Origin: Candidatus Phosphitivorax anaerolimi | Lineage (GTDB): Bacteria > Desulfobacterota > Desulfomonilia > UBA1062 | Length of the DNA: 64,000 bases | Assembly (NCBI GenBank): GCA_001896555.1 | Contig: MPOS01000028.1 | Span: forward strand, 7,603 to 71,602 | Direction of reading: 5' to 3' | Shown here: positions 3,405 to 51,015 of the stretch, one piece after another | Position numbering within the stretch: position 1 is the first letter of the stretch | Layout: the number at the start of each line of letters is the position of its first letter | Made by a program: the position numbers and the translations under genes | The notes under the pieces: generated by a model | What the model saw: only the letters and a program-made list of their open reading frames with translations | Told to the model about the DNA's origin: nothing | The model's database searches: none

Positions 3405-4706
3405 CTACCTGAGCAGACTCGGAAGGAAGGTCGCGATCTGGGGGAAGGGGATCAGGAGGAAGGTGAGGAGGACGATCGCGAGCAGCAGGGGCACGACCCC
3501 CCTGAAGATCACCCCCAGCGGCACGTCCCTGGCCACCCCGCTCACCACATAGACATTCACGCCCACCGGCGGGGTGATGACCCCGATCTGGGTGACGAGC
3601 ACGATCACCACGCCGAACCAGATGGGGTTGAACCCGTAGTCGAGCACCACGGGGTAGAAGATCGGGATGGTGAGCATGATCAGCGCCAGCGAGTCGATGA
3701 AGCACCCGCCCAGCAAGTAGATCAGCACGATAAAACTCATGATGATCGCCGGATGGAGCTGAAACGACGAGATCCAGCTCGCGATGTCGTAGGGGATGCG
3801 CGAGACGGCCAGGAAATGGCCGAACACCGTGGCGCCAGCCACGATGATCAGGATCATGGCGCTGATCCGCGTGGTCTCGAACAGTGCCTGGACGAATCCA
3901 TCCCAGGTGATGTTGCGCTGAATGAGGGCGACCACCAGCGTGGCAAAGGCCCCGGCGGCCCCGGCCTCGGTGGGCGTGAAGATGCCCAGAAAGAGCCCGC
4001 CCATCACGACAACGAAGATGATAAGCGTCTCAATGGTGCCCGGGAGGGACGCGGCCCGCTCTTTCCAGGTGCTCTTCGGACCCTTTGGTCCGATCTCTGG
4101 CCTGAGTGTGGCCCAGATGAGAATGGTGCCCACAAAGAACAGGGTGAGCAGGACGCCTGGAAGGATGCCCGCGAGAAAGAGCTCGCCGATGGACTGCTCG
4201 GTGAGGATCCCATACACGATGAAGATCACGCTCGGCGGGATCAGGATGCCGAGGCTTCCCCCCGCTGCAACCACGCCGGTGGCCAGCTCGGGTTTGTAGT
4301 TGTACCTCTTCATCTCGGGCAGGGTGGCCGCGGCCATGGTGGCGGCGGTTGCGTTGGTGGAGCCGCAGATGGCGGAAAAGGCGGCGCAGGCCCCCACGGT
4401 GGCGATGGCGAGCCCGCCTGGGAGATGGCCGATGAAGGTGTAGGCCGTGTCGAACAGGCGCTTGGAGATCCCGGAGTGAAAGGCGATCTGCCCCATGAGC
4501 ACGAACAGGGGAATAACCGTGAGGTTATAGGAGCCGAACACGGAGAACATGTCCTTGGCCAGCAGGTTCAGCGACGCGTCCATCGAGACGATGGAGGCAA
4601 AGCCCAGAAAACCGATGATGGCCATGAGAAAGCCCACGGGCATCCGGGAAAAGATGAGCACGAACAGGGCGATGATGCCGATGATGCCGATTATGGTGGG
4701 GCTCAT
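3405..4706 (-). CDS. dctM: TRAP transporter large permease subunit (DctM family)
   Basis: 433 aa polytopic membrane protein of typical DctM composition and length. Its start overlaps the dctQ stop. Confidence 0.85.
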   Translation of the reverse strand: MSPTIIGIIGIIALFVLIFSRMPVGFLMAIIGFLGFASIVSMDASLNLLAKDMFSVFGSYNLTVIPLFVLMGQIAFHSGISKRLFDTAYTFIGHLPGGLAIATVGACAAFSAICGSTNATAATMAAATLPEMKRYNYKPELATGVVAAGGSLGILIPPSVIFIVYGILTEQSIGELFLAGILPGVLLTLFFVGTILIWATLRPEIGPKGPKSTWKERAASLPGTIETLIIFVVVMGGLFLGIFTPTEAGAAGAFATLVVALIQRNITWDGFVQALFETTRISAMILIIVAGATVFGHFLAVSRIPYDIASWISSFQLHPAIIMSFIVLIYLLGGCFIDSLALIMLTIPIFYPVVLDYGFNPIWFGVVIVLVTQIGVITPPVGVNVYVVSGVARDVPLGVIFRGVVPLLLAIVLLTFLLIPFPQIATFLPSLLR

Positions 4707-5200
4707 TCGACCTCAGCCCCTTTCAGCTGCCTAAAAAACTCGACGAAGAGCACCACTACCAGCATGGCGGTGCCGAACGCCACCCCGTAGACAAACGGAT
4801 AGGTGGGCATCTGCAGCGTTGCCGACACCTCGCCCGAGCGCTGGAGGCTCTGGGCATACTCGACGCTCTGCCATGAAACCACGGCGAAAAAGATCATGGC
4901 GATAAAGGCATTGACGGCGTTTACAATGATCCGGACGGTCCAGGGAAGCCGCATCACGAGAAAGTCAACAGCGATATGTCCCTTCTGGACCGAGGTGTAG
5001 GGAAGCGCGAACGAGATGATGACCGCGCCCGTGAAGCTGACGATCTCGTAGGTCCCGGGGATGGGGCTCTTGAAAAATCGCAGGATGACATCCGCGGTGG
5101 TGAGGAACATCATGAAGGCAACCCCTGCGGCGGACAACCAGTTCAACTTGTCTGCAAGGTTTGCCACGAATCTCTCGATGCGCAGAAAGGATATCATCAA
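4703..5200 (-). CDS. dctQ: TRAP transporter small permease subunit (DctQ family)
   Basis: 165 aa, 4 TM segments, translationally coupled to dctM by an ATGA overlap. Confidence 0.8.
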   Translation of the reverse strand: MMISFLRIERFVANLADKLNWLSAAGVAFMMFLTTADVILRFFKSPIPGTYEIVSFTGAVIISFALPYTSVQKGHIAVDFLVMRLPWTVRIIVNAVNAFIAMIFFAVVSWQSVEYAQSLQRSGEVSATLQMPTYPFVYGVAFGTAMLVVVLFVEFFRQLKGAEVE

Positions 5201-5272
5201 AATCTCCCCATGAAAACCCGGGGCAGCGCTCTCTCGAACGGGCCGCCCCGGGCATAGCCGATGAAATGCCCT

Positions 5273-6349
5273 TTACTCGATGTTTTTCTCCACGCACGCC
5301 TGCAGGATCGAGATGTTCTTCGCGGCATCGATGCCCTTTGCCTGCGCGGCGGCGATATATTCGTCGATCACGGGCTTGACAGCAGCCTTCCACCGAGGGA
5401 TCTCGTCTTCGGGCAGGGTGATGAATGTGTTCTTCTGCTCCTCATTGAAGGCTGTACCCTCTGCGTCGGCTTCGTCCCAGATCTGCCCGTGCACCGTGAT
5501 ATACTCGGCGCTCACATCCGTAAAGACCTGCTGGATATCAGCCGGCAGCCTGTTCCACTTGTCCTTGTTCATGACCACGAACATCGCCGTAGTGTAGCCG
5601 ACGCCCCGGCAGTCGATGGTGTAGTCGATGACCTCGGCCTGCTTCCAGCCCTTGAGCGTTTCAATAGGTGCGAAGGTCCCCTCAACCACGCCCTTCTGAA
5701 GGGCCTCGTAAGTGCCGGGCTGCGGCATAGCCACCGGCACGCCTCCAAGGGCCTCTACGAGCTTGGCGCTCAGGCCCGTGGAGCGGATCTTCATCCCCTT
5801 GAGGTCTTCGAGCCTGTTCACCGGTTTCTTGGTGTGCAGCAGGCCCGGGCCATGCGCATGGACATAGAGCACATGGACGTCATCGAGCTCCTTGGGTTTG
5901 ACCTGGGCATAATACTCGTTCGCCACACGGGTCGCCGCCATGCCGCTGGGATAGCCCATGGGCAGGTCCACGGCCTCCATGACCGGGAAACGGCCCCGGG
6001 TGTAGGCGAAGCATGACATCCCGATATCCGAGATCCCTCGCACCACGCCGTCATAGCATTCGTTCGCGCTGGTGAGCGTGCCGCCCGGGAACACGTTGAT
6101 CTTCACCTGCCCCTGGGTGCGCTTTTCGATCTCACGCGCCCATGCCTCACCGGTCTTGCACTGGGCATGGGTGGGCGGGAAAAAGATACTGTAGGACAGC
6201 TCCACCACCTCGCCCCTGGGCGCAGCACCACTATCGGTCACTACAGCCCCCTCTGCGGGCACTGTCTCCTCCTCAGCCTTCTTGGTACACGAAATGCAAA
6301 GCATCAGTACAAGAAGGCCACAAACCAAACTACAGATGGTTCTTTTCAT
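5273..6349 (-). CDS. dctP: TRAP transporter solute-binding protein (DctP family); probable lipoprotein
   Basis: Start moved to [21 protein letters not shown] (ATG at 6349, AGGGGGAG RBS). The periplasmic-binding-protein body matches the DctP family, directly upstream of dctQM. Confidence 0.8.
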
Positions 6350-6888
6350 GGAATCTCCCCCTTTGTGTTCCCTTGATAAAGCCGCCATTCGCAAACCCTG
6401 TATGGTGTCAAATCAGCGTCCTGGACAACGCAAGACCACATGCGTTGCCCTTCTTCAGGGAAGAGCCCATATTTTAGTAGGATCATGATGAAAATCAAGG
6501 AAATTATTCCCCGGCCGCACAGGGCACGGTTTGCTGTTGTCTCATGCGTATCCGTACAGATACCTGGGCGGAGGCATCCTTTGAATAACGTCATGACCTG
6601 CTGCGGGCGGAACCTGCAGGCTATATCCGCATGGAGACAGACACCGCGTTCAACCTGCGCGCCCATGCAGACACCTCCAGGTGCGGGAGACATACCGGTG
6701 CTGCATGGCGAGAGGGCATAAGCTGGGCATTGCAGGGAGGCTGCGTGCGTCTCGCGGCACGGGTGAGATGCGGGTGTCCTGCCTGCAAGTCTTGTGTGGT
6801 AGATATACGATACATTGGCGGGTCCGGGATGGTCCATACGGCACGCAGGCGCAGACGGCTGTTTTCCGGGGAGGTCCGTTTGCGGTTC

Positions 6889-7293
6889 TCAGGCCTCGAA
6901 ATCAGCGCCGCACGAGTCGCATTTTTCGCTGTCAGGCCACACCAGGTTTCCGCATGCGGAGCAGAGATGCACTGTGCCCGCCTGCGTGCCCGAAACCGCG
7001 CCCTTCACGGGCAGACCGAGGAGCTTCTTGAGCAGGATGATGATCTCGGAGAGCGCCCCGAAGAGCAGAAAGAGCACGCCGCCCGCCAAGGCGCATACGA
7101 GCCCGGTTGCGAGCCACAGAAAGGAGCCTGTCGCAATGGCAGCCGCAACGCCGGCAAGGCAGGCAATGATCCCGGCTGCGAGGAACGACCGGGATGCCAC
7201 CAGCAGCCCGCGCTCTTTGCCCTGGGTATCCCGGTAATGCTTCTGAACGATCTGCGCCTTCACGTATTCTTCACCAAGGTTCACGGCAGCCAT
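6889..7293 (-). CDS. Small membrane protein with C-terminal zinc-ribbon (CxxC-x13-CxxC)
   Basis: Two TM helices followed by CSACGNLVWPDSEKCDSCGADFEA. The start at MAAVNLGEEY (GGAGAG RBS) is preferred over the track's upstream start. Confidence 0.45.
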   Translation of the reverse strand: MAAVNLGEEYVKAQIVQKHYRDTQGKERGLLVASRSFLAAGIIACLAGVAAAIATGSFLWLATGLVCALAGGVLFLLFGALSEIIILLKKLLGLPVKGAVSGTQAGTVHLCSACGNLVWPDSEKCDSCGADFEA

Positions 7294-7473
7294 GCCCCCC
7301 GTTGCTCTCCCCGGCACGCACACGCCGGATCTCCTTGTTCAGGAGATGAAGATAAGCAAGCGGCTATTTGAAGCGATGTCCGAAAGGTGTCGCCTCCATA
7401 AACGCATCTTGAACGATGCACCCTCAGCGAAACAGATTCAAAACATCTTCGATGTCGGGGGGGCCTGCTCTCT

Positions 7474-7905
7474 TCAGAGGCCGTAGACCTGCTCGCCCTT
7501 GAGCACCTTAAACCCGTTTTGCTGCAGGGCCTCGATGGCCTCGTCCGTGGAGTCGAACCGGAAGATGATCACCGCGTTCTCGCCGCTGCGCTCGACAAAG
7601 GCATACATGTACTCGACATTGATCCCCCTGCTGGTGAGCAGCTCGAGAATGCTGTTGAGCCCGCCCGGCCTATCGGGGACCTCAACGGCCACCACGTGCG
7701 TCTTGCCCACGGCAAAGCCCTGTTCGTTCAGCACATCCTTTGCCTTTGCCACATCGTCCACAATGAGCCTCAGAATGCCGAAATCCGACGTGTCGGCAAG
7801 GGAAAGGGCCCGGATGTTGATCTTTGCATCGCTCAGGGCCTTGGTGACGCTGGAAAGCCCTCCCGGCTTGTTCTCCAGAAAAATCGATATCTGCTCTACC
7901 TTCAT
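7474..7905 (-). CDS. ACT-domain protein, terminal gene of the iorAB-paaK operon
   Basis: Start at [17 protein letters not shown] (ATG 7905, AGGAGG RBS). Two ACT units. Only a 10-bp gap after paaK. Confidence 0.7.
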
Positions 7906-7915
7906 CAAAGACCTC

Positions 7916-9217
7916 CTAGATATTCCGCTTGTCGAGCACCCGCTGAGCCTTGCCCTCAAACCGCTGGAGGGTGTTCGGCTCAACCAGCTTCACCTTGGCG
8001 GTCACGCCAAGATAGTCCTTGATATCCTTTGTAATGCGTTTCTCCATGTTCTGCAACTCGCGAATTTCATCCGAGAAGATCTTTTCGCTCACCTCGACCT
8101 GAACCTCCAGGGTGTCCAGGGAGCCGTCCCGGTCGACAATGAGCAGGTAGTGCGGCTCCAGGCCGTCGATGCCCAGGAGTACGCTCTCGATCTGAGAGGG
8201 GAACACATTGACGCCCCTGATGATGAGCATGTCGTCGCTCCTGCCCGAGACCCGCTCCATGCGCACGAAGGTCCTCCCACACTTGCAGACCTGCGGCATG
8301 AGCCTCGAGATGTCCTTGGTGCGGTAGCGGATGAGCGGGAAGGCCTCCTTGGTCAGCGTGGTGAACACCAGCTCGCCGGGTGTGCCCCAGGGGAGCACCT
8401 CGCCGGTGGCGGGGTCGATGGTTTCCACGATGAAGTGGTCCTCGTTGATGTGCAGGCCGTTGCGGCCCTCGATGCACTCCATGGCTACGCCGGGGCCCAT
8501 GATCTCAGAGAGGCCGTAGATGTCCAGCGCGGTGATATCCAGCTCGCGCTCGATCTGCTCGCGCATCCGCTCGCTCCAGGGCTCGGCCCCGAGGATGCCG
8601 ACCCTGAGCCTCAGAGACTTCATATCCACACCCATCTCCTTTCCAGACTCGGCCAGGAAGAGCAGGTACGAGGGCGTGCAGCAGATGGCGGTTGGTCCGA
8701 AGTCCTGCAGCAGCATGATCTGTTTCTTGGTGCTGCCGCCCGACATGGGGATCACGCTCGCGCCCAGTTTTTCGGCGCCGTAGTGTGCTCCCAGGCCTCC
8801 GGTGAACAGTCCGTAGCCGTAGGCGTTGTGGATGATGTCGTTCTTGCTGAGGCCGGCCGATACGAACGACCGGGCCATGAGCGTGGCCCAGGTCTCGACG
8901 TCGCGCTGGGTGTAGCCCACCACTGTGGGCTTGCCCGTGGTGCCCGACGAGGCGTGCAGACGCACGATGCTGCTCATGGGCACCGAGAACAGGCCGAAGG
9001 GGTAGTTGTCGCGCAGGTCCTGCTTGCAGGTGAAGGGAAGCCGCTTGAGGTCGTCGAGACTCCGGATGTCATCCGGGGTGACCCCGGCGTTGTCGAAGGA
9101 CTTCCGGTAGAAACCCACCGTATGATAGACCCTGCCCACCACCTGCTGCAGCCGTTTGAGCTGCAGGGCCTCGATGGCCTCGCGGGGGAGTGTTTCGAAC
9201 TCTTCGTTATAAATCAT
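7916..9217 (-). CDS. paaK: Phenylacetate-CoA ligase (PaaK family; aryl-acetate adenylating enzyme)
   Basis: 433 aa. AMP-binding motif SSGTTGKPT, the PaaK-type N-terminus [24 protein letters not shown], and the C-terminal domain all match. Confidence 0.85.
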
Positions 9218-9241
9218 CTGCTACCTCCTTGATGGTCAGCA

Positions 9242-9811
9242 TCATTGGATCTGGATCTGCCTGCCTCTTTTGAATCCTTCGATGTTCGCGGCCCGGATCT
9301 TCTCCTTGAGCATCGAATTGATGGCATCATACCACGCCGATTCGGGCGGGTCCAGCAGGGTGGAAAGTACGCCCAGCAGGATGATATTCACGCCCCTGGC
9401 ATTGCCCATCTCCTCGGCGATGGCCGAGCCCGGGACCAGGTGAATGTTCCGGGTTTTCTCCCTGAGGAAAGGGATCACGTCCGGGTACGCCCGGCTGCCG
9501 GACACGACCGCAGGCGGTGCGAGACGATACTGGTTGATGATCACCGTGGCGTCCTTCTTGAGATACTTGAGGTATCTGGCCGCCTCCAGCTCCTCGAACG
9601 AGAGCAGGATGTCACAGCAGCCATAGGGGATGAGGGGGGAATCCACATGCCCGGCAAACCGCACGTGGGACATGACACTCCCGCCCCGCTGGGCCATGCC
9701 GTGGATCTCCGATTTCTTCACGTCGTAGCCCGAGCGCATCATTACCTCGGAAAGCATGTCGGAAGCCAGGATGATCCCCTGCCCCCCGACTCCGGTCATC
9801 AGCACGTTCAT
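9242..9811 (-). CDS. iorB: Indolepyruvate:ferredoxin oxidoreductase beta subunit (gamma-domain protein)
   Basis: 189 aa beginning MNVLMTGVGGQGIILASDML (the pyruvate/ketoisovalerate oxidoreductase gamma motif). Overlaps the iorA stop. Confidence 0.85.
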   Translation of the reverse strand: MNVLMTGVGGQGIILASDMLSEVMMRSGYDVKKSEIHGMAQRGGSVMSHVRFAGHVDSPLIPYGCCDILLSFEELEAARYLKYLKKDATVIINQYRLAPPAVVSGSRAYPDVIPFLREKTRNIHLVPGSAIAEEMGNARGVNIILLGVLSTLLDPPESAWYDAINSMLKEKIRAANIEGFKRGRQIQIQ

Positions 9812-11538
9812 TTCTCACCTCCGATGGCCCCGGGTGCGCAGAGATCGGCGCACACGCCGCATCCCACACACGTCTCGTTGATGTGGGCCTTCTCGTCTCT
9901 GAATTCGATGGCGGGACACCCCAGTCCGATGCACACCTTGCAGCCCGTGCAAACATCCGCATCCACGGTGAGCGCCCTGCCTGGGACCTTGCGTGACTTC
10001 AGCAGAACGCATGGCGCCTTCGAGATGATCACTGACGGGCCTTCGAACGCCAGTGCCTCTTTCACGTCCTTTCTGGCCTGCTTGACGTCGTAGGGGTCAA
10101 CGGTCCTGACCCACTCGATCCCCAGCGCCCTGACAAGGTTTTCCAGGTCAAGGTTCACGGTCCTCTCGCCCCGTACCGTGATTCCGGTGCCCGGATGGTC
10201 CTGCGAGCCCGTCATGGCCGTGGTGGAGTTGTCGAGGATCACGATGAGCGCCGCGCCATTGTTGTAGGCGAGGTTGAGCAGCCCGGTGATGCCCGAGTGG
10301 TAGAAGGTCGAGTCGCCGATGACCGCGGCGATCTTCTCTTTCCCCGGACCGAAAACAGTGGCCATGCCGTGGGCGTGGTTGATGCCCGCCCCCATGCATA
10401 GGCAGGTGTCAATGGCCGAGAGCGGCGGGAGGAATCCCAAAGTGTAGCAACCGATGTCGCCTGCGATGAAGCACTTGTTGCGCTTCAAGGCCCAGAGCAT
10501 GCCCCGGTGCGGGCATCCGGGACACATGCTGGGAGGACGCGGCGGCAGGTCGGGCTGGGCCCCGTCATCCGGTGCGGCCCCTGTTATCGCGCTCTGGATG
10601 ATGTCCGGATTCAGCTCTCCGCACAGGGGCAGCCGGTCCTTGCCGTGGCAGTCGATGCCTAAGGCCTTCACCTGCTCCTCCATGAACGGGTCGAGCTCCT
10701 CGACGACCCAGAGCTCTTCCACCTGGGCGGTGAACTTTCTGATGAGCTTTTCCGGCAGAGGATACGACAGGCCCACCTTCAGAAACGAGGCATCCGGAAA
10801 GGCCTCTTTCGCATACTGGTAGGCCACCCCGGATGAGATGATGCCGAGCTTCGGACTGCCCATCTCAATGACATTCAGGGGCGAGGCGTCGGAATAAACT
10901 TTGAGCGACCGGATGCGCTCTTCGATCACGGGATGGCGCACCCGCGCATTGGCCGGCAGCATCACCCACTCCGCCGGATGGCGTTCGAGAGAGGGGGTGC
11001 GGCCGCCCTTCTTGTCGCCAAGCTCAACCACACCCATGGAGTGGGATATCCGCGTGGTGGTGCGCAGCAGCACCGGGGTCCCGAACTCCTCGCTGATCTG
11101 CACGGCTTCGATCGTGAAGTCCTTGGCCTCCTGCGAGGTGGATGGCTCCAGCATCGGGATCTTGGCGAACCGGGCATAGTGCCGGTTGTCCTGTTCGTTC
11201 TGCGAGGAGAACAGCTCGGGGTCGTCGGCGCTCACCAGAACGATCCCGCCCCGGATCAGGGTGTAGGGCAGGGTCATGAGAGGGTCTGCGGCCACGTTCA
11301 CCCCCACGTGCTTCATGACCGCCATGCAGCGGGCCCCTGCATAGGACGCCCCGGCGGCAACCTCAAGGGCGACCTTCTCGTTGGGAGTCCACTCCGCATG
11401 AATCTCGGGGTACTCGTCCGCCACGGTCTGCAGGATCTCGGTCGATGGTGTGCCGGGATATGCCGAGACAAAGCTCACCCCAGCCTCGAACGCCCCCCGG
11501 GCGATTGCCTCGTTTCCGCTCAATATCTTCTTCATCAC
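9808..11538 (-). CDS. iorA: Indolepyruvate:ferredoxin oxidoreductase alpha subunit (TPP-binding, two C-terminal 4Fe-4S motifs)
   Basis: 576 aa. N-terminal GNEAIARGAFEAGVSFVSAYPGTPSTEI; C-terminal CTGCKVCIGLGCP ... CVGCGVCADLCAP. Starts GTG 11538 / ATG 11535 with an AAGGGGAA RBS. Confidence 0.85.
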   Translation of the reverse strand: MMKKILSGNEAIARGAFEAGVSFVSAYPGTPSTEILQTVADEYPEIHAEWTPNEKVALEVAAGASYAGARCMAVMKHVGVNVAADPLMTLPYTLIRGGIVLVSADDPELFSSQNEQDNRHYARFAKIPMLEPSTSQEAKDFTIEAVQISEEFGTPVLLRTTTRISHSMGVVELGDKKGGRTPSLERHPAEWVMLPANARVRHPVIEERIRSLKVYSDASPLNVIEMGSPKLGIISSGVAYQYAKEAFPDASFLKVGLSYPLPEKLIRKFTAQVEELWVVEELDPFMEEQVKALGIDCHGKDRLPLCGELNPDIIQSAITGAAPDDGAQPDLPPRPPSMCPGCPHRGMLWALKRNKCFIAGDIGCYTLGFLPPLSAIDTCLCMGAGINHAHGMATVFGPGKEKIAAVIGDSTFYHSGITGLLNLAYNNGAALIVILDNSTTAMTGSQDHPGTGITVRGERTVNLDLENLVRALGIEWVRTVDPYDVKQARKDVKEALAFEGPSVIISKAPCVLLKSRKVPGRALTVDADVCTGCKVCIGLGCPAIEFRDEKAHINETCVGCGVCADLCAPGAIGGEK

Positions 11539-11564
11539 GTATTCCCCTTGACTCGACTCGGATA

Positions 11565-11605
11565 TAAAAAAAGGCCATGGCGTTCACCCATGGCCTTTTC
11601 TCTTC
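11565..11605. terminator. Intrinsic terminator-like hairpin flanked by A7 upstream and T-rich downstream (bidirectional)
   Basis: Stem AGGCCATGG / CCATGGCCT, loop CGTTCAC. On the minus strand the hairpin is followed by seven U. It lies about 30 nt upstream of the iorA start codon. Confidence 0.7.
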
Positions 11606-11617
11606 CCCGCCGGAAAC

Positions 11618-11689
11618 ACTGGCCTATGGGCGTACTTTCATCCCTCTAAAGATGAAAAAGTAAAAGCCCAAGAGTTCCAGTGTGTTCGG
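11618..11689 (-). CDS. Candidate 23-aa leader peptide MLPNTLELLGFYFFIFRGMKVRP (aromatic-rich) in the iorA leader
   Basis: Minus-strand mini-ORF (my own translation) ending 17 nt before the terminator hairpin. There is a weak GAAG upstream. A TTGACA-N15-TAGAAT promoter-like site lies at about 11740..11702 (minus strand). Confidence 0.25.
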
Positions 11690-11926
11690 CAACATAGCTT
11701 CTACACTATTCTATAGAAATATTTTGGCTGTCAAGCCTTTTTGCGCACAGGACCCAGCTGCATCCAGCATATCGGCAGGATCAGGCCTTCGACCCCCTAT
11801 GCATGCTTCGCATGAAGGACCTGGGCATGACCCTGTAACTCAAAACCATAGCCGGCCACTCTTGCTCATGATACCGGGCGTGTGAACGATGCGGCGGAAC
11901 CTGACCCCTCGCTGAAAGCGCTACCC

Positions 11927-12805
11927 TTACCCTGCTTCGGACGCACCCAGGGCCATGGGGACCTCGTCCTCCGCCGTGCTTTCCTTCCCGCGATCTGCAC
12001 CATGCCGGTAGACGTGCACATCCCTCTGGGGGAAGGGGATCTTGACGCCGTTGGCATCGAACTGCTTTTTCGCCTCTTCCACGGTTTCGAAGTACACTCC
12101 CCAGTAATCGGCCGTTTTTACCCAGACCCTCAACTCGATGTTCACGCTATTCTCATCGAGGGTCTTGACGATGATCATGGCCGCAGGATCTTTCAAAATC
12201 CGGTGGTCGTTGTCCACGATGTTCCGGAGGATCTTCCTCACCTTGTCGATATCGTCCTGATAGCTCACCCTGAAGGGCATGTCGACGCGCCTGGTTTCAT
12301 GCGCAGAATAGTTGACGATATTGTCGCTCATGATCTTGGAGTTGGGAATGATGACGAGCTTGTTGTCAGGGGTCTTCAGCGTGGTGGTGAATATCTGGAT
12401 CTTGTCGACCGTGCCTGCCACGCCCGCGCCTTCGATGTAATCACCCGCCTTGAATGGCTTGAATATGATCATGAGGAAGCCGGCGGCGAAATTCGCCAGC
12501 GACCCCTGCAGAGCCAGGCCGATCGCCAGGCCGGCGGCACCGATGACCGCGATGAACGAGGTGGTCTGGATCCCCAGCTGGGCGAGCGCCGCCAGGACGA
12601 TAAAGACCATGAGCGCGACATAGGTGACGTGTTCGACAAAGGAGACGATGGTCGGATCCACCTTTCCCTTGTTCAAAAAACGCTGGGTTATCTTCGTGAT
12701 ACCCTTTGCCGCCCATCGCCCGACAACCAGAATGACCGCGGCTGCAATGATCTTGATTCCATAAAAGGCAGCCAGCTCCTGCAATTTCATTACCAGCCCT
12801 TCCAT
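11927..12805 (-). CDS. mscS: Small-conductance mechanosensitive channel (MscS family)
   Basis: 292 aa. Three N-terminal TM helices including the Gly/Ala-rich pore helix (AVIGAAGLAIGLALQGSLANFAAG), then the MscS beta-domain. Confidence 0.85.
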   Translation of the reverse strand: MEGLVMKLQELAAFYGIKIIAAAVILVVGRWAAKGITKITQRFLNKGKVDPTIVSFVEHVTYVALMVFIVLAALAQLGIQTTSFIAVIGAAGLAIGLALQGSLANFAAGFLMIIFKPFKAGDYIEGAGVAGTVDKIQIFTTTLKTPDNKLVIIPNSKIMSDNIVNYSAHETRRVDMPFRVSYQDDIDKVRKILRNIVDNDHRILKDPAAMIIVKTLDENSVNIELRVWVKTADYWGVYFETVEEAKKQFDANGVKIPFPQRDVHVYRHGADRGKESTAEDEVPMALGASEAG

Positions 12806-50880: not shown

Positions 50881-51015
50881 CAAGCGCCTTAACAAAAAAA
50901 GCGAGCGAAAAAGGGGGAACGGGCCTTAAGGTTTCGTCCCCCCTTTTCTTTTTTAGCCGGGCCGGAGAATCAGGGGGATGAACCGCGTCCGCCCATCCTT
51001 ACCTTTTGAGCAGGC

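Follow-up and report, generated by a model that had tools for sequence, protein, structure and literature searches.

A Tyr/Phe-codon leader upstream of iorA as a probable ribosome-mediated attenuator in Candidatus Phosphitivorax anaerolimi and its relatives

Architecture of the iorA leader

The window analysed here is a 64,000-nt stretch of Candidatus Phosphitivorax anaerolimi DNA (GCA_001896555.1, contig MPOS01000028.1, positions 7,603–71,602, forward strand), which carries an iorA–iorB–paaK–ACT cluster preceded by a compact leader. The leader is differentiated into a candidate promoter, a 23-codon open reading frame (ORF) dense in Tyr and Phe codons, strands able to pair in mutually exclusive ways, and an intrinsic terminator shortly before iorA. 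We consider it likely that this element is a leader-peptide (ribosome-mediated) transcription attenuator sensing the supply of charged tRNA-Tyr and tRNA-Phe, a reading for which the evidence is computational throughout. Its parts, all on the minus strand and numbered by window position, are as follows.

11729–11734, minus strand: −35 hexamer TTGACA, in a conserved A-rich context (AGAAAANNCTTGACAG in relatives)
11708–11713, minus strand: candidate −10 hexamer TAGAAT, after an N15 spacer from TTGACA
11624–11695, minus strand: leader ORF, 23 codons plus UAG, encoding MLPNTLELLGFYFFIFRGMKVRP and then stop; from the ORF call, with an orthologous ORF in relatives
11666–11692, minus strand: region 1, from the predicted fold; 5′ strand of a long leader hairpin, pairing with region 2 and its 3′ flank (anti-antiterminator)
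11648–11665, minus strand: putative regulatory codon block UUU UAC UUU UUC AUC UUU (F Y F F I F)
11621–11632, minus strand: region 2, CGCCCAUAGGCC; 5′ antiterminator strand, holding the last Pro codon and UAG
11585–11596, minus strand: region 3, AGGCCAUGGGUG; 5′ terminator arm and also 3′ antiterminator strand
11566–11580, minus strand: region 4, the 3′ terminator arm CCAUGGCCU, overlapping the start of the U7 tract
11544–11549, minus strand: Shine–Dalgarno (SD) sequence AAGGGG, preceding the iorA start
11535 or 11538, minus strand: iorA start, ATG at 11535 or GTG at 11538; homologues called at 575 aa correspond to the ATG

A preliminary description of this DNA had proposed a minus-strand promoter TTGACA-N15-TAGAAT, which we find at 11734–11708; the same promoter scan allows an alternative reading, TTGACA-N18-AATAGT. 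That description also had the ORF right, with its five aromatic residues in six positions (FYFFIF; ORF at 11695–11624), as well as a hairpin with U7 about 30 nt upstream of iorA, which we measure at 27–30 nt from the T run to the two candidate start codons. Its spacing of 17 nt between ORF and hairpin has to be revised to 27 nt from the stop codon, or 24 nt counting the A-U extension of the stem. The argument that a promoter has no room between hairpin and iorA holds up, a consensus scan detecting no promoter-like site between the terminator and iorA.

The terminator stem is built from AGGCCATGG (11596–11588) and CCATGGCCT (11580–11572), closed by a GTGAACG loop (11587–11581). As RNA this becomes AGGCCAUGG, loop GUGAACG and the 3′ arm given above, a GC-rich stem of 9–12 bp that A-U pairs can extend. 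The T7 run spans 11572–11566, and T11572 also closes the 3′ arm. A search of the 64 kb window for the hairpin pattern gives one match, where 0.09 would be expected; the terminator has a predicted ΔG of −19.2 kcal/mol. For the 151-nt leader the predicted folding energy is −64 kcal/mol (z = −5.97 versus shuffles).

Conservation and placement of the leader

We compared 23 distinct leaders, the window included, drawn from the closest genome loci, from a metagenome pattern scan and from contig look-ups for IorA homologues of 73–85% identity; the set covers IorA proteins about 73–100% identical, plus another lineage. (Loci outside the window are given as L numbers.) The scan, with query GCCCATAGGC N15-45 GGYCRTGGG, returned 6 genuine leaders among the 120 matches listed, the others being chance matches within coding DNA. 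The best IorA match is 82% identical and belongs to a Desulfomonilia metagenome-assembled genome (MAG). Upstream of iorA, the same layout recurs in 8/9 of the closest genome loci (IorA 72–82% identical), and the leader is found at 7/9 loci of homologues 73–85% identical. None of 71 more distant IorA loci (≤57% identity) has such a leader.

The order downstream is constant in relatives: iorA–iorB–paaK–ACT, then either a Peripla_BP_6 ABC binding protein or the combination of a Zn-ribbon protein and a TRAP transporter. Upstream neighbours differ, comprising mscS, Usp, flavodoxin-like, methyltransferase and cold-shock (CSD) genes, some of them divergently oriented. Promoter, ORF and hairpin therefore belong to iorA rather than to the gene upstream. 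The preliminary description had kept in reserve a constitutive mscS terminator, and the hairpin does lie downstream of mscS on the same strand. It sits, however, ~330 nt past the mscS stop codon (11929–11927) with a consensus −35 promoter in between, and an identical hairpin follows unrelated or divergently oriented genes in relatives, the element following iorA whatever gene stands upstream. We give this explanation next to no weight; the varied upstream genes in the comparative data exclude it.

Spacing is tightly kept on both sides of the ORF. CTTGACA is retained in 20/20 iorA-clade leaders with upstream sequence, and the distance from the −35 hexamer to the leader AUG is 29–34 nt in all 20. 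From this spacing the leader transcript probably has a 5′ untranslated region (UTR) of about 0–5 nt, which would explain why no SD precedes the leader ORF. The leaders of L112 and L123 have a longer 5′ UTR, with a GGAGG-type SD at the proper distance before the leader start. At the other end, the T run lies 21–43 nt from the next start codon in 22/23 leaders. In L206 (L206:2825–3000), ~176 nt of extra sequence separates the leader terminator from iorA, as against 21–43 nt at all other loci.

A promoter, a transcript of ~130 nt and a strong terminator would also make a self-contained unit, and the whole could be an independent small gene, encoding either a small RNA (sRNA) or a 23-aa hydrophobic microprotein, with iorA expressed from a separate promoter that the 176-nt gap of L206 would be able to hold. 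We regard this as improbable. The interval from U tract to start codon is filled by the SD at 22/23 loci and the promoter scan there is empty; in all of three arrangements the unit immediately precedes aromatic-related genes and points the same way; and the peptide is poorly conserved except in its aromatic content and its end. The terminated leader RNA could nonetheless have a second role in trans.

IorA relatives at 64–68% identity (L202, L203 and L205) have a TetR-family gene directly upstream instead. At L202:2750–3000 a different small ORF (MFMSDNSFFRTLSGLLSAPKRESHCS, then stop) stands at the same distance from a CTTGACA box, with a GGCCGTGACT/AGTCATGGCC hairpin and its T-rich tail coming next; this element may be a diverged relative of the attenuator.

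The element is present once in the window: pattern search, covariance model with filters off, and a scan for terminators with biased short ORFs all failed to find a second copy in the 64 kb. A strong palindromic hairpin at ~50905–50955, flanked by A and T runs (AAAAGGGGGGACGAAACC...GGCCCGUUCCCCCUUUU), scores as a terminator whichever strand is read and probably works in both directions. At gathering thresholds Rfam has no match in the whole window, and at E ≤ 10 the interval 11400–12100 gives just two terminator-like sRNA fragments (16 bits), neither of them relevant. Among the Rfam leader families (Phe_leader, Trp_leader, leu/phe leader and others), no covariance model comes near its gathering score. 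Full-text literature searching turned up no account of an attenuator in front of iorA or paaK, and nothing relevant on an iorA attenuator or a Tyr-codon leader in Deltaproteobacteria.

Codon content of the leader ORF

Alignment of orthologous leaders, a check suggested in the preliminary description, reveals an ORF of 20–24 codons with a Pro-UAG end in 23/23 cases and a cluster of Tyr and Phe in 22/23. The latter comprises 4–8 residues at approximately codons 9–17, against a background of 7% aromatic residues in neighbouring proteins. The bias is specific to frame: over all leaders, TTY/TAY triplets number 116 in frame, compared with 40 and 30 in the two alternative frames. Close relatives differ within the block by exchange of F for Y or by synonymous substitution (UAU/UAC and UUU/UUC), retaining aromaticity, while the remainder of the peptide drifts freely. 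The Tyr:Phe ratio is variable, extending from an all-Tyr leader in L140 (MRNYACIQAYRYVYYYRKKRCP) to an all-Phe leader in L123 (...GFAGGFFFGFRGAGP). We take the leader ORF to be translated, presumably in coupling with transcription.

One leader departs from this pattern. L209:2840–2970 (plus strand; IorA 74% identical) resembles the others in promoter spacing, in the length and Pro-UAG end of its ORF and in its terminator, yet the ORF (MDNDPTRVPRCSCRRLACKCACP, then stop) lacks aromatic residues altogether and has six Cys, and region 2 is a weakened CCCUUAGGCC. It is the sole case found, and may be decayed or re-coded.

The leaders of L003, L207, L191 and L009 have N-terminal codons similar to those of a Trp leader in L112 (MFEKTA..., MMEKTA...; see below), across lineages whose leaders would sense different amino acids. 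This may reflect a need of translation initiation or descent from a common chassis.

Mutually exclusive terminator and antiterminator

The UAG stop codon sits inside the near-invariant GCCCAUAGGCC. This strand, region 2, resembles the 3′ terminator arm and can pair, through GCCCAU(A)GGCC, with the 5′ arm GGCCAUGGGC, the A of UAG being bulged. Folding the leader in search of an antiterminator, as had been proposed, thus returns one: in the window the 2:3 helix runs from C11621–G11595 to C11632–G11585 over 11 bp. In an alignment of 20 of the leaders the region 2 core GCCCAUAGGC is identical in 18, the other two differing at one wobble-compatible or mismatched base. Across the same alignment 96% of cells are paired in the 2:3 helix, compared with 24–44% when the partner is slid by 1–3 columns. 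The pair flanking the core is UA in 13, GC in 2, UG in 2 and CG in 1; since these flanking bases lie in the terminator loop, their complementarity to region 2 serves the antiterminator alone. Both antiterminator strands are longer in L112 and L123, in a complementary manner, and reach ~15–18 bp.

The competing terminator is equally well kept, with 92% of cells paired across leaders and compensatory changes in the outer pairs. Terminators of the set consist of a GC-rich stem of 9–13 bp followed by U5–U8, and the RNAalifold consensus structure is the terminator.

We then modelled a ribosome on the aromatic codons of a transcript ending just before region 4. The 2:3 helix forms in every Tyr/Phe leader under these conditions, at −18 to −39 kcal/mol versus −17 to −31 kcal/mol for the terminators, and is comparable to or stronger than the terminator except in four leaders. 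When the modelled footprint reaches 12 nt beyond the A-site codon, a ribosome on most of the aromatic codons, and in most leaders on the last of them too, keeps region 2 clear. The 1:2 pairing, between region 2 and codons just 5′ of the aromatic block, gives a −37.8 kcal/mol hairpin in the window; judged sequence by sequence, it is predicted in 15/23 leaders and is weak or absent elsewhere. MAFFT with RNAalifold does not recover the 1:2 helix because the ORF region is not structurally alignable.

The locus therefore presents the parts that define a ribosome-mediated attenuator: a short ORF in the 5′ leader enriched for codons of the amino acids presumed to be sensed; an intrinsic terminator between this ORF and the first structural gene; an antiterminator that shares the 5′ terminator arm and hence excludes the terminator; and a masking geometry in which a ribosome at the stop codon covers region 2, while one at the regulatory codons leaves it free. 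The attenuator proposed in the preliminary description gains in this way from comparison, with ORF, Tyr/Phe cluster, terminator and alternative pairing kept in 22 further leaders.

Two other sensors could operate on the same RNA. The first is a terminator/antiterminator switch worked by a small ligand or by a protein that binds RNA, the ORF being incidental. Extreme conservation of the RNA core would suit such a switch, as would L209, whose RNA architecture is intact in the absence of aromatic codons. It leaves unexplained, however, the frame-specific Tyr/Phe bias, the fixed start, the stop codon inside region 2 and the SD of L112 and L123; no relevant Rfam family is matched, and there is no conserved multi-helix structure resembling a ligand pocket. 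We judge it very improbable.

The second is a TnaC-like arrest peptide, in which the aromatic chain and Pro-UAG end would sense free Phe, Tyr or aryl acid in the ribosome tunnel, and a ribosome held at the stop would set terminator choice. The Pro-UAG end of 23/23 leaders fits this, and Arg-Pro-stop is common to TnaC and the window leader. Against it, the Pro codon and UAG fall within paired region 2, so that RNA constraint alone explains their invariance; no further residue is kept at constant spacing from Pro, and Trp12 and Asp16 of TnaC have no equivalent; the terminator is intrinsic, not Rho-dependent; and codons match pathway as tRNA sensing would predict, with FFF ahead of paaK and WWW ahead of a trpB-like gene (described below). 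Moreover, a ribosome held at the stop would favour termination, giving the same polarity as tRNA-charge sensing. A peptide of this type seems improbable to us. A broader version treats the (Cys/Arg/Gly)-Pro-UAG end and aromatic nascent chain as a programmed arrest module, the ribosome on region 2 sensing both free ligand (Phe, Tyr or aryl acid) and tRNA charging; this would be a dual TnaC/trpL-type sensor, one chassis re-coded by lineages for Tyr, Phe, Trp and perhaps Cys. We consider it unlikely.

Sister leaders before other aromatic genes

The leader type is not confined to iorA. In L112 and L123 it stands directly before paaK–ACT, the PaaK being 68% identical to that of the window. At L140:9120–9243 (plus strand) the all-Tyr leader precedes a Peripla_BP_6/Liv-type ABC transporter (binding protein plus LivH/LivM-like permeases), with no iorA.

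Searching with a covariance model of the Tyr/Phe leaders brought out another element, in the opposite orientation, at L112:3092–3204 (plus strand; 23.9 bits, E = 0.004), with a sister in L123 at ~10861–10960 (plus strand). The ORFs, MMEKTAILLGWWWQIL in L112 and MMKTILQGWWWRTL in L123 (each followed by stop), contain three consecutive Trp codons. These leaders possess a region-2-like GCCCA(A/G)UAAGGCC and a GGCCGUGGGCAG/CUGGCCCACGGCC hairpin, and precede genes for a Phenol_MetA_deg outer-membrane protein and a TrpB-like pyridoxal-phosphate (PLP) enzyme (NF009057, 746 bits). The Trp element is on the opposite strand to the Phe-leader/paaK–ACT unit, and in L112 lies nearby.

Codons and genes are thus matched, with Phe codons before phenylacetate ligase and Trp codons before an indole-condensing enzyme, as sensing of tRNA charge predicts. 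Together, FFF codons upstream of paaK, YYY upstream of an ABC transporter and WWW upstream of a TrpB-like gene point to a possible aromatic-salvage regulon coordinated by ribosomes.

Composition of the operon

The genes that the leader would control, assigned with Pfam and NCBIfam, are as follows.

9808–11535, minus strand: iorA, IOR alpha (TIGR03336, 736 bits; cutoff 651)
9242–9811, minus strand: iorB
7916–9217, minus strand: paaK (TIGR02155, 639 bits; cutoff 646)
7474–7905, minus strand: ACT-pair protein
6889–7323, minus strand: Zn-ribbon protein, 144 aa, between the ACT gene and dctP
5273–~6300, minus strand: dctP, TRAP transporter
4703–5200, minus strand: dctQ, TRAP transporter
3405–4706, minus strand: dctM, TRAP transporter
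3405–11535, minus strand: putative regulated operon, iorA through dctM, with the same gene order in relatives

The genes are on the same strand and tightly packed, so the transcript probably runs on through the TRAP genes. The ACT-pair protein resembles regulatory subunits of biosynthetic enzymes. A possible further ORF lies at 6346–6837 (minus strand) between the ACT gene and dctP, and L206 and L209 have a 132–146 aa protein in the position of the Zn-ribbon protein.

A model for attenuation and pathway direction

In the mechanism that we favour, transcription would start at, or a few nt before, the AUG of the 23-codon leader ORF. With Tyr and Phe plentiful, the ribosome would pass F-Y-F-F-I-F and reach the Pro-UAG end within region 2. 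The terminating ribosome would mask region 2, leaving region 3 (GGCCAUGGG) to pair with region 4 (CCAUGGCC, then U7), and RNA polymerase would stop 27–30 nt before iorA. When charged tRNA-Tyr or tRNA-Phe is scarce, the ribosome would instead stall on the aromatic codons, occupying or sterically removing region 1 and freeing region 2; this would capture region 3 ahead of region 4 synthesis, through 11 bp that leave the A of UAG bulged, so that the terminator is blocked and polymerase reads into iorA–iorB–paaK–ACT–TRAP. In E. coli, a C-terminal Pro slows peptide release, and the C-terminal Pro of the leader may likewise lengthen ribosome dwell at the stop codon, although its invariance is also fully explained by base-pairing of the Pro codon in region 2.

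By this geometry the operon is most likely on when Tyr and Phe are short. The preliminary description had found such polarity puzzling for a catabolic operon. The puzzle is real on that premise, and dissolves if the operon is anabolic, where activation by starvation is natural to a salvage route. In such a route the operon would import aryl acids by a TRAP or ABC transporter and activate them with PaaK, an AMP-forming ligase; IOR would then reductively carboxylate the activated acids to arylpyruvates, from which transamination would replenish Phe and Tyr. Reductive carboxylation of aryl acids to Phe and Tyr is biochemically known from rumen bacteria. The presumably co-transcribed paaK and TRAP uptake genes argue for an anabolic reading, as do the occurrence elsewhere of the same leader type before paaK–ACT and an ABC transporter, and the Trp-Trp-Trp sister leader before a TrpB-like gene. 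A precedent, known from genetics, is the published IOR route of Methanococcus maripaludis, which is anabolic from aryl acids (Porat 2004, as cited in PMC4162585). Our analysis suggests that the IOR and PaaK enzymes here salvage aryl acids into Phe and Tyr rather than breaking them down.

Several observations weigh against the attenuator model. L008 and L214/L215 are close relatives that lack the leader element, and the L209 leader retains the architecture with Cys in place of aromatic codons. The best −10 hexamer of the window has an unusual 15-nt spacer. Just 15 of the 23 leaders have a predicted 1:2 pairing. The core of regions 2, 3 and 4 is near-invariant, so that covariation rests on few flanking pairs in related sequences, and shuffle controls are exceeded modestly in the covariation test. 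The anabolic direction of IOR and PaaK in the host organism is, finally, a premise that we infer.

With these leaders the Thermodesulfobacteriota gain a conserved family of probable amino-acid-sensing attenuators that lacks an Rfam model, present in Desulfomonilia-like MAGs and in one or more further lineages. Mechanistically the family is unremarkable; what makes it interesting is the pathway targeted and what polarity implies for the direction of that pathway. The bacterial iorA–iorB–paaK–ACT cluster is widespread and usually annotated as catabolism of aromatic amino acids or phenylacetate. The polarity supplies regulatory evidence on physiology: in these organisms the cluster appears to be switched on by Tyr/Phe starvation, which would imply that imported aryl acids are reductively carboxylated to make Phe and Tyr. 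This bears on metabolic reconstruction from MAGs of anoxic sediments and digesters, and on which organisms there consume phenylacetate and 4-hydroxyphenylacetate.

Comparison with known attenuators

The closest models are the E. coli leaders of pheA (pheL) and pheST (pheM), whose mechanism is summarised in PMC11802643. Features in common are a short leader ORF rich in Phe codons, exclusive 2:3 and 3:4 hairpins (with 1:2 predicted in part of the present set), an intrinsic terminator just ahead of the first structural gene and, as predicted here, derepression at low charged tRNA. There is no similarity in sequence or by covariance model, however, and several features differ: the codons here are a Tyr and Phe mix whose ratio varies by lineage, the antiterminator strand contains the stop codon, there is probably little or no 5′ UTR, and the host is Desulfomonilia-like. 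The targets are IOR, PaaK and transporters, not the shikimate/prephenate pathway or a tRNA synthetase.

A mixed Phe/Tyr peptide is found in the aroR leader of Corynebacterium glutamicum (Phe-Tyr-Phe, upstream of aroF), which likewise controls a gene of aromatic supply via ribosome stalling (PMC11802643). AroR differs in governing DAHP synthase, and hence de novo synthesis, where the present target is salvage of aryl acids; the leaders described here use 4–8 aromatic codons, not three, and are unrelated in sequence. The trpL leader has the same architecture and logic, and the W-W-W leader of L112 and L123 before a TrpB-like gene is its direct analogue, although what it precedes is not trpEDCBA but genes for an outer-membrane channel and a TrpB-like enzyme standing alone.

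Leaderless polycysteine short ORFs of mycobacteria (bioRxiv 10.1101/834739) are similar in placing a short sensory ORF at or near the transcript 5′ end, in pausing on a run of one codon and in sharing the design among several loci. Those ORFs act on translation by unmasking a downstream ribosome binding site, whereas the element here has a canonical intrinsic terminator; its probable near-leaderless start is deduced from spacing (−35 to AUG 29–34 nt, compatible with a 0–5 nt UTR). TnaC, lastly, is also a peptide of ~24 residues with a Pro-stop end upstream of genes for aromatic metabolism. It responds to free Trp, acts by blocking Rho and switches on a catabolic gene, whereas the present leaders have an intrinsic terminator, no conserved Trp or Asp and the opposite logic. 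Of the TnaC hallmarks (sensor residues at fixed spacing, a Rho-dependent terminator and the Pro-stop end), the Pro-stop alone is shared.

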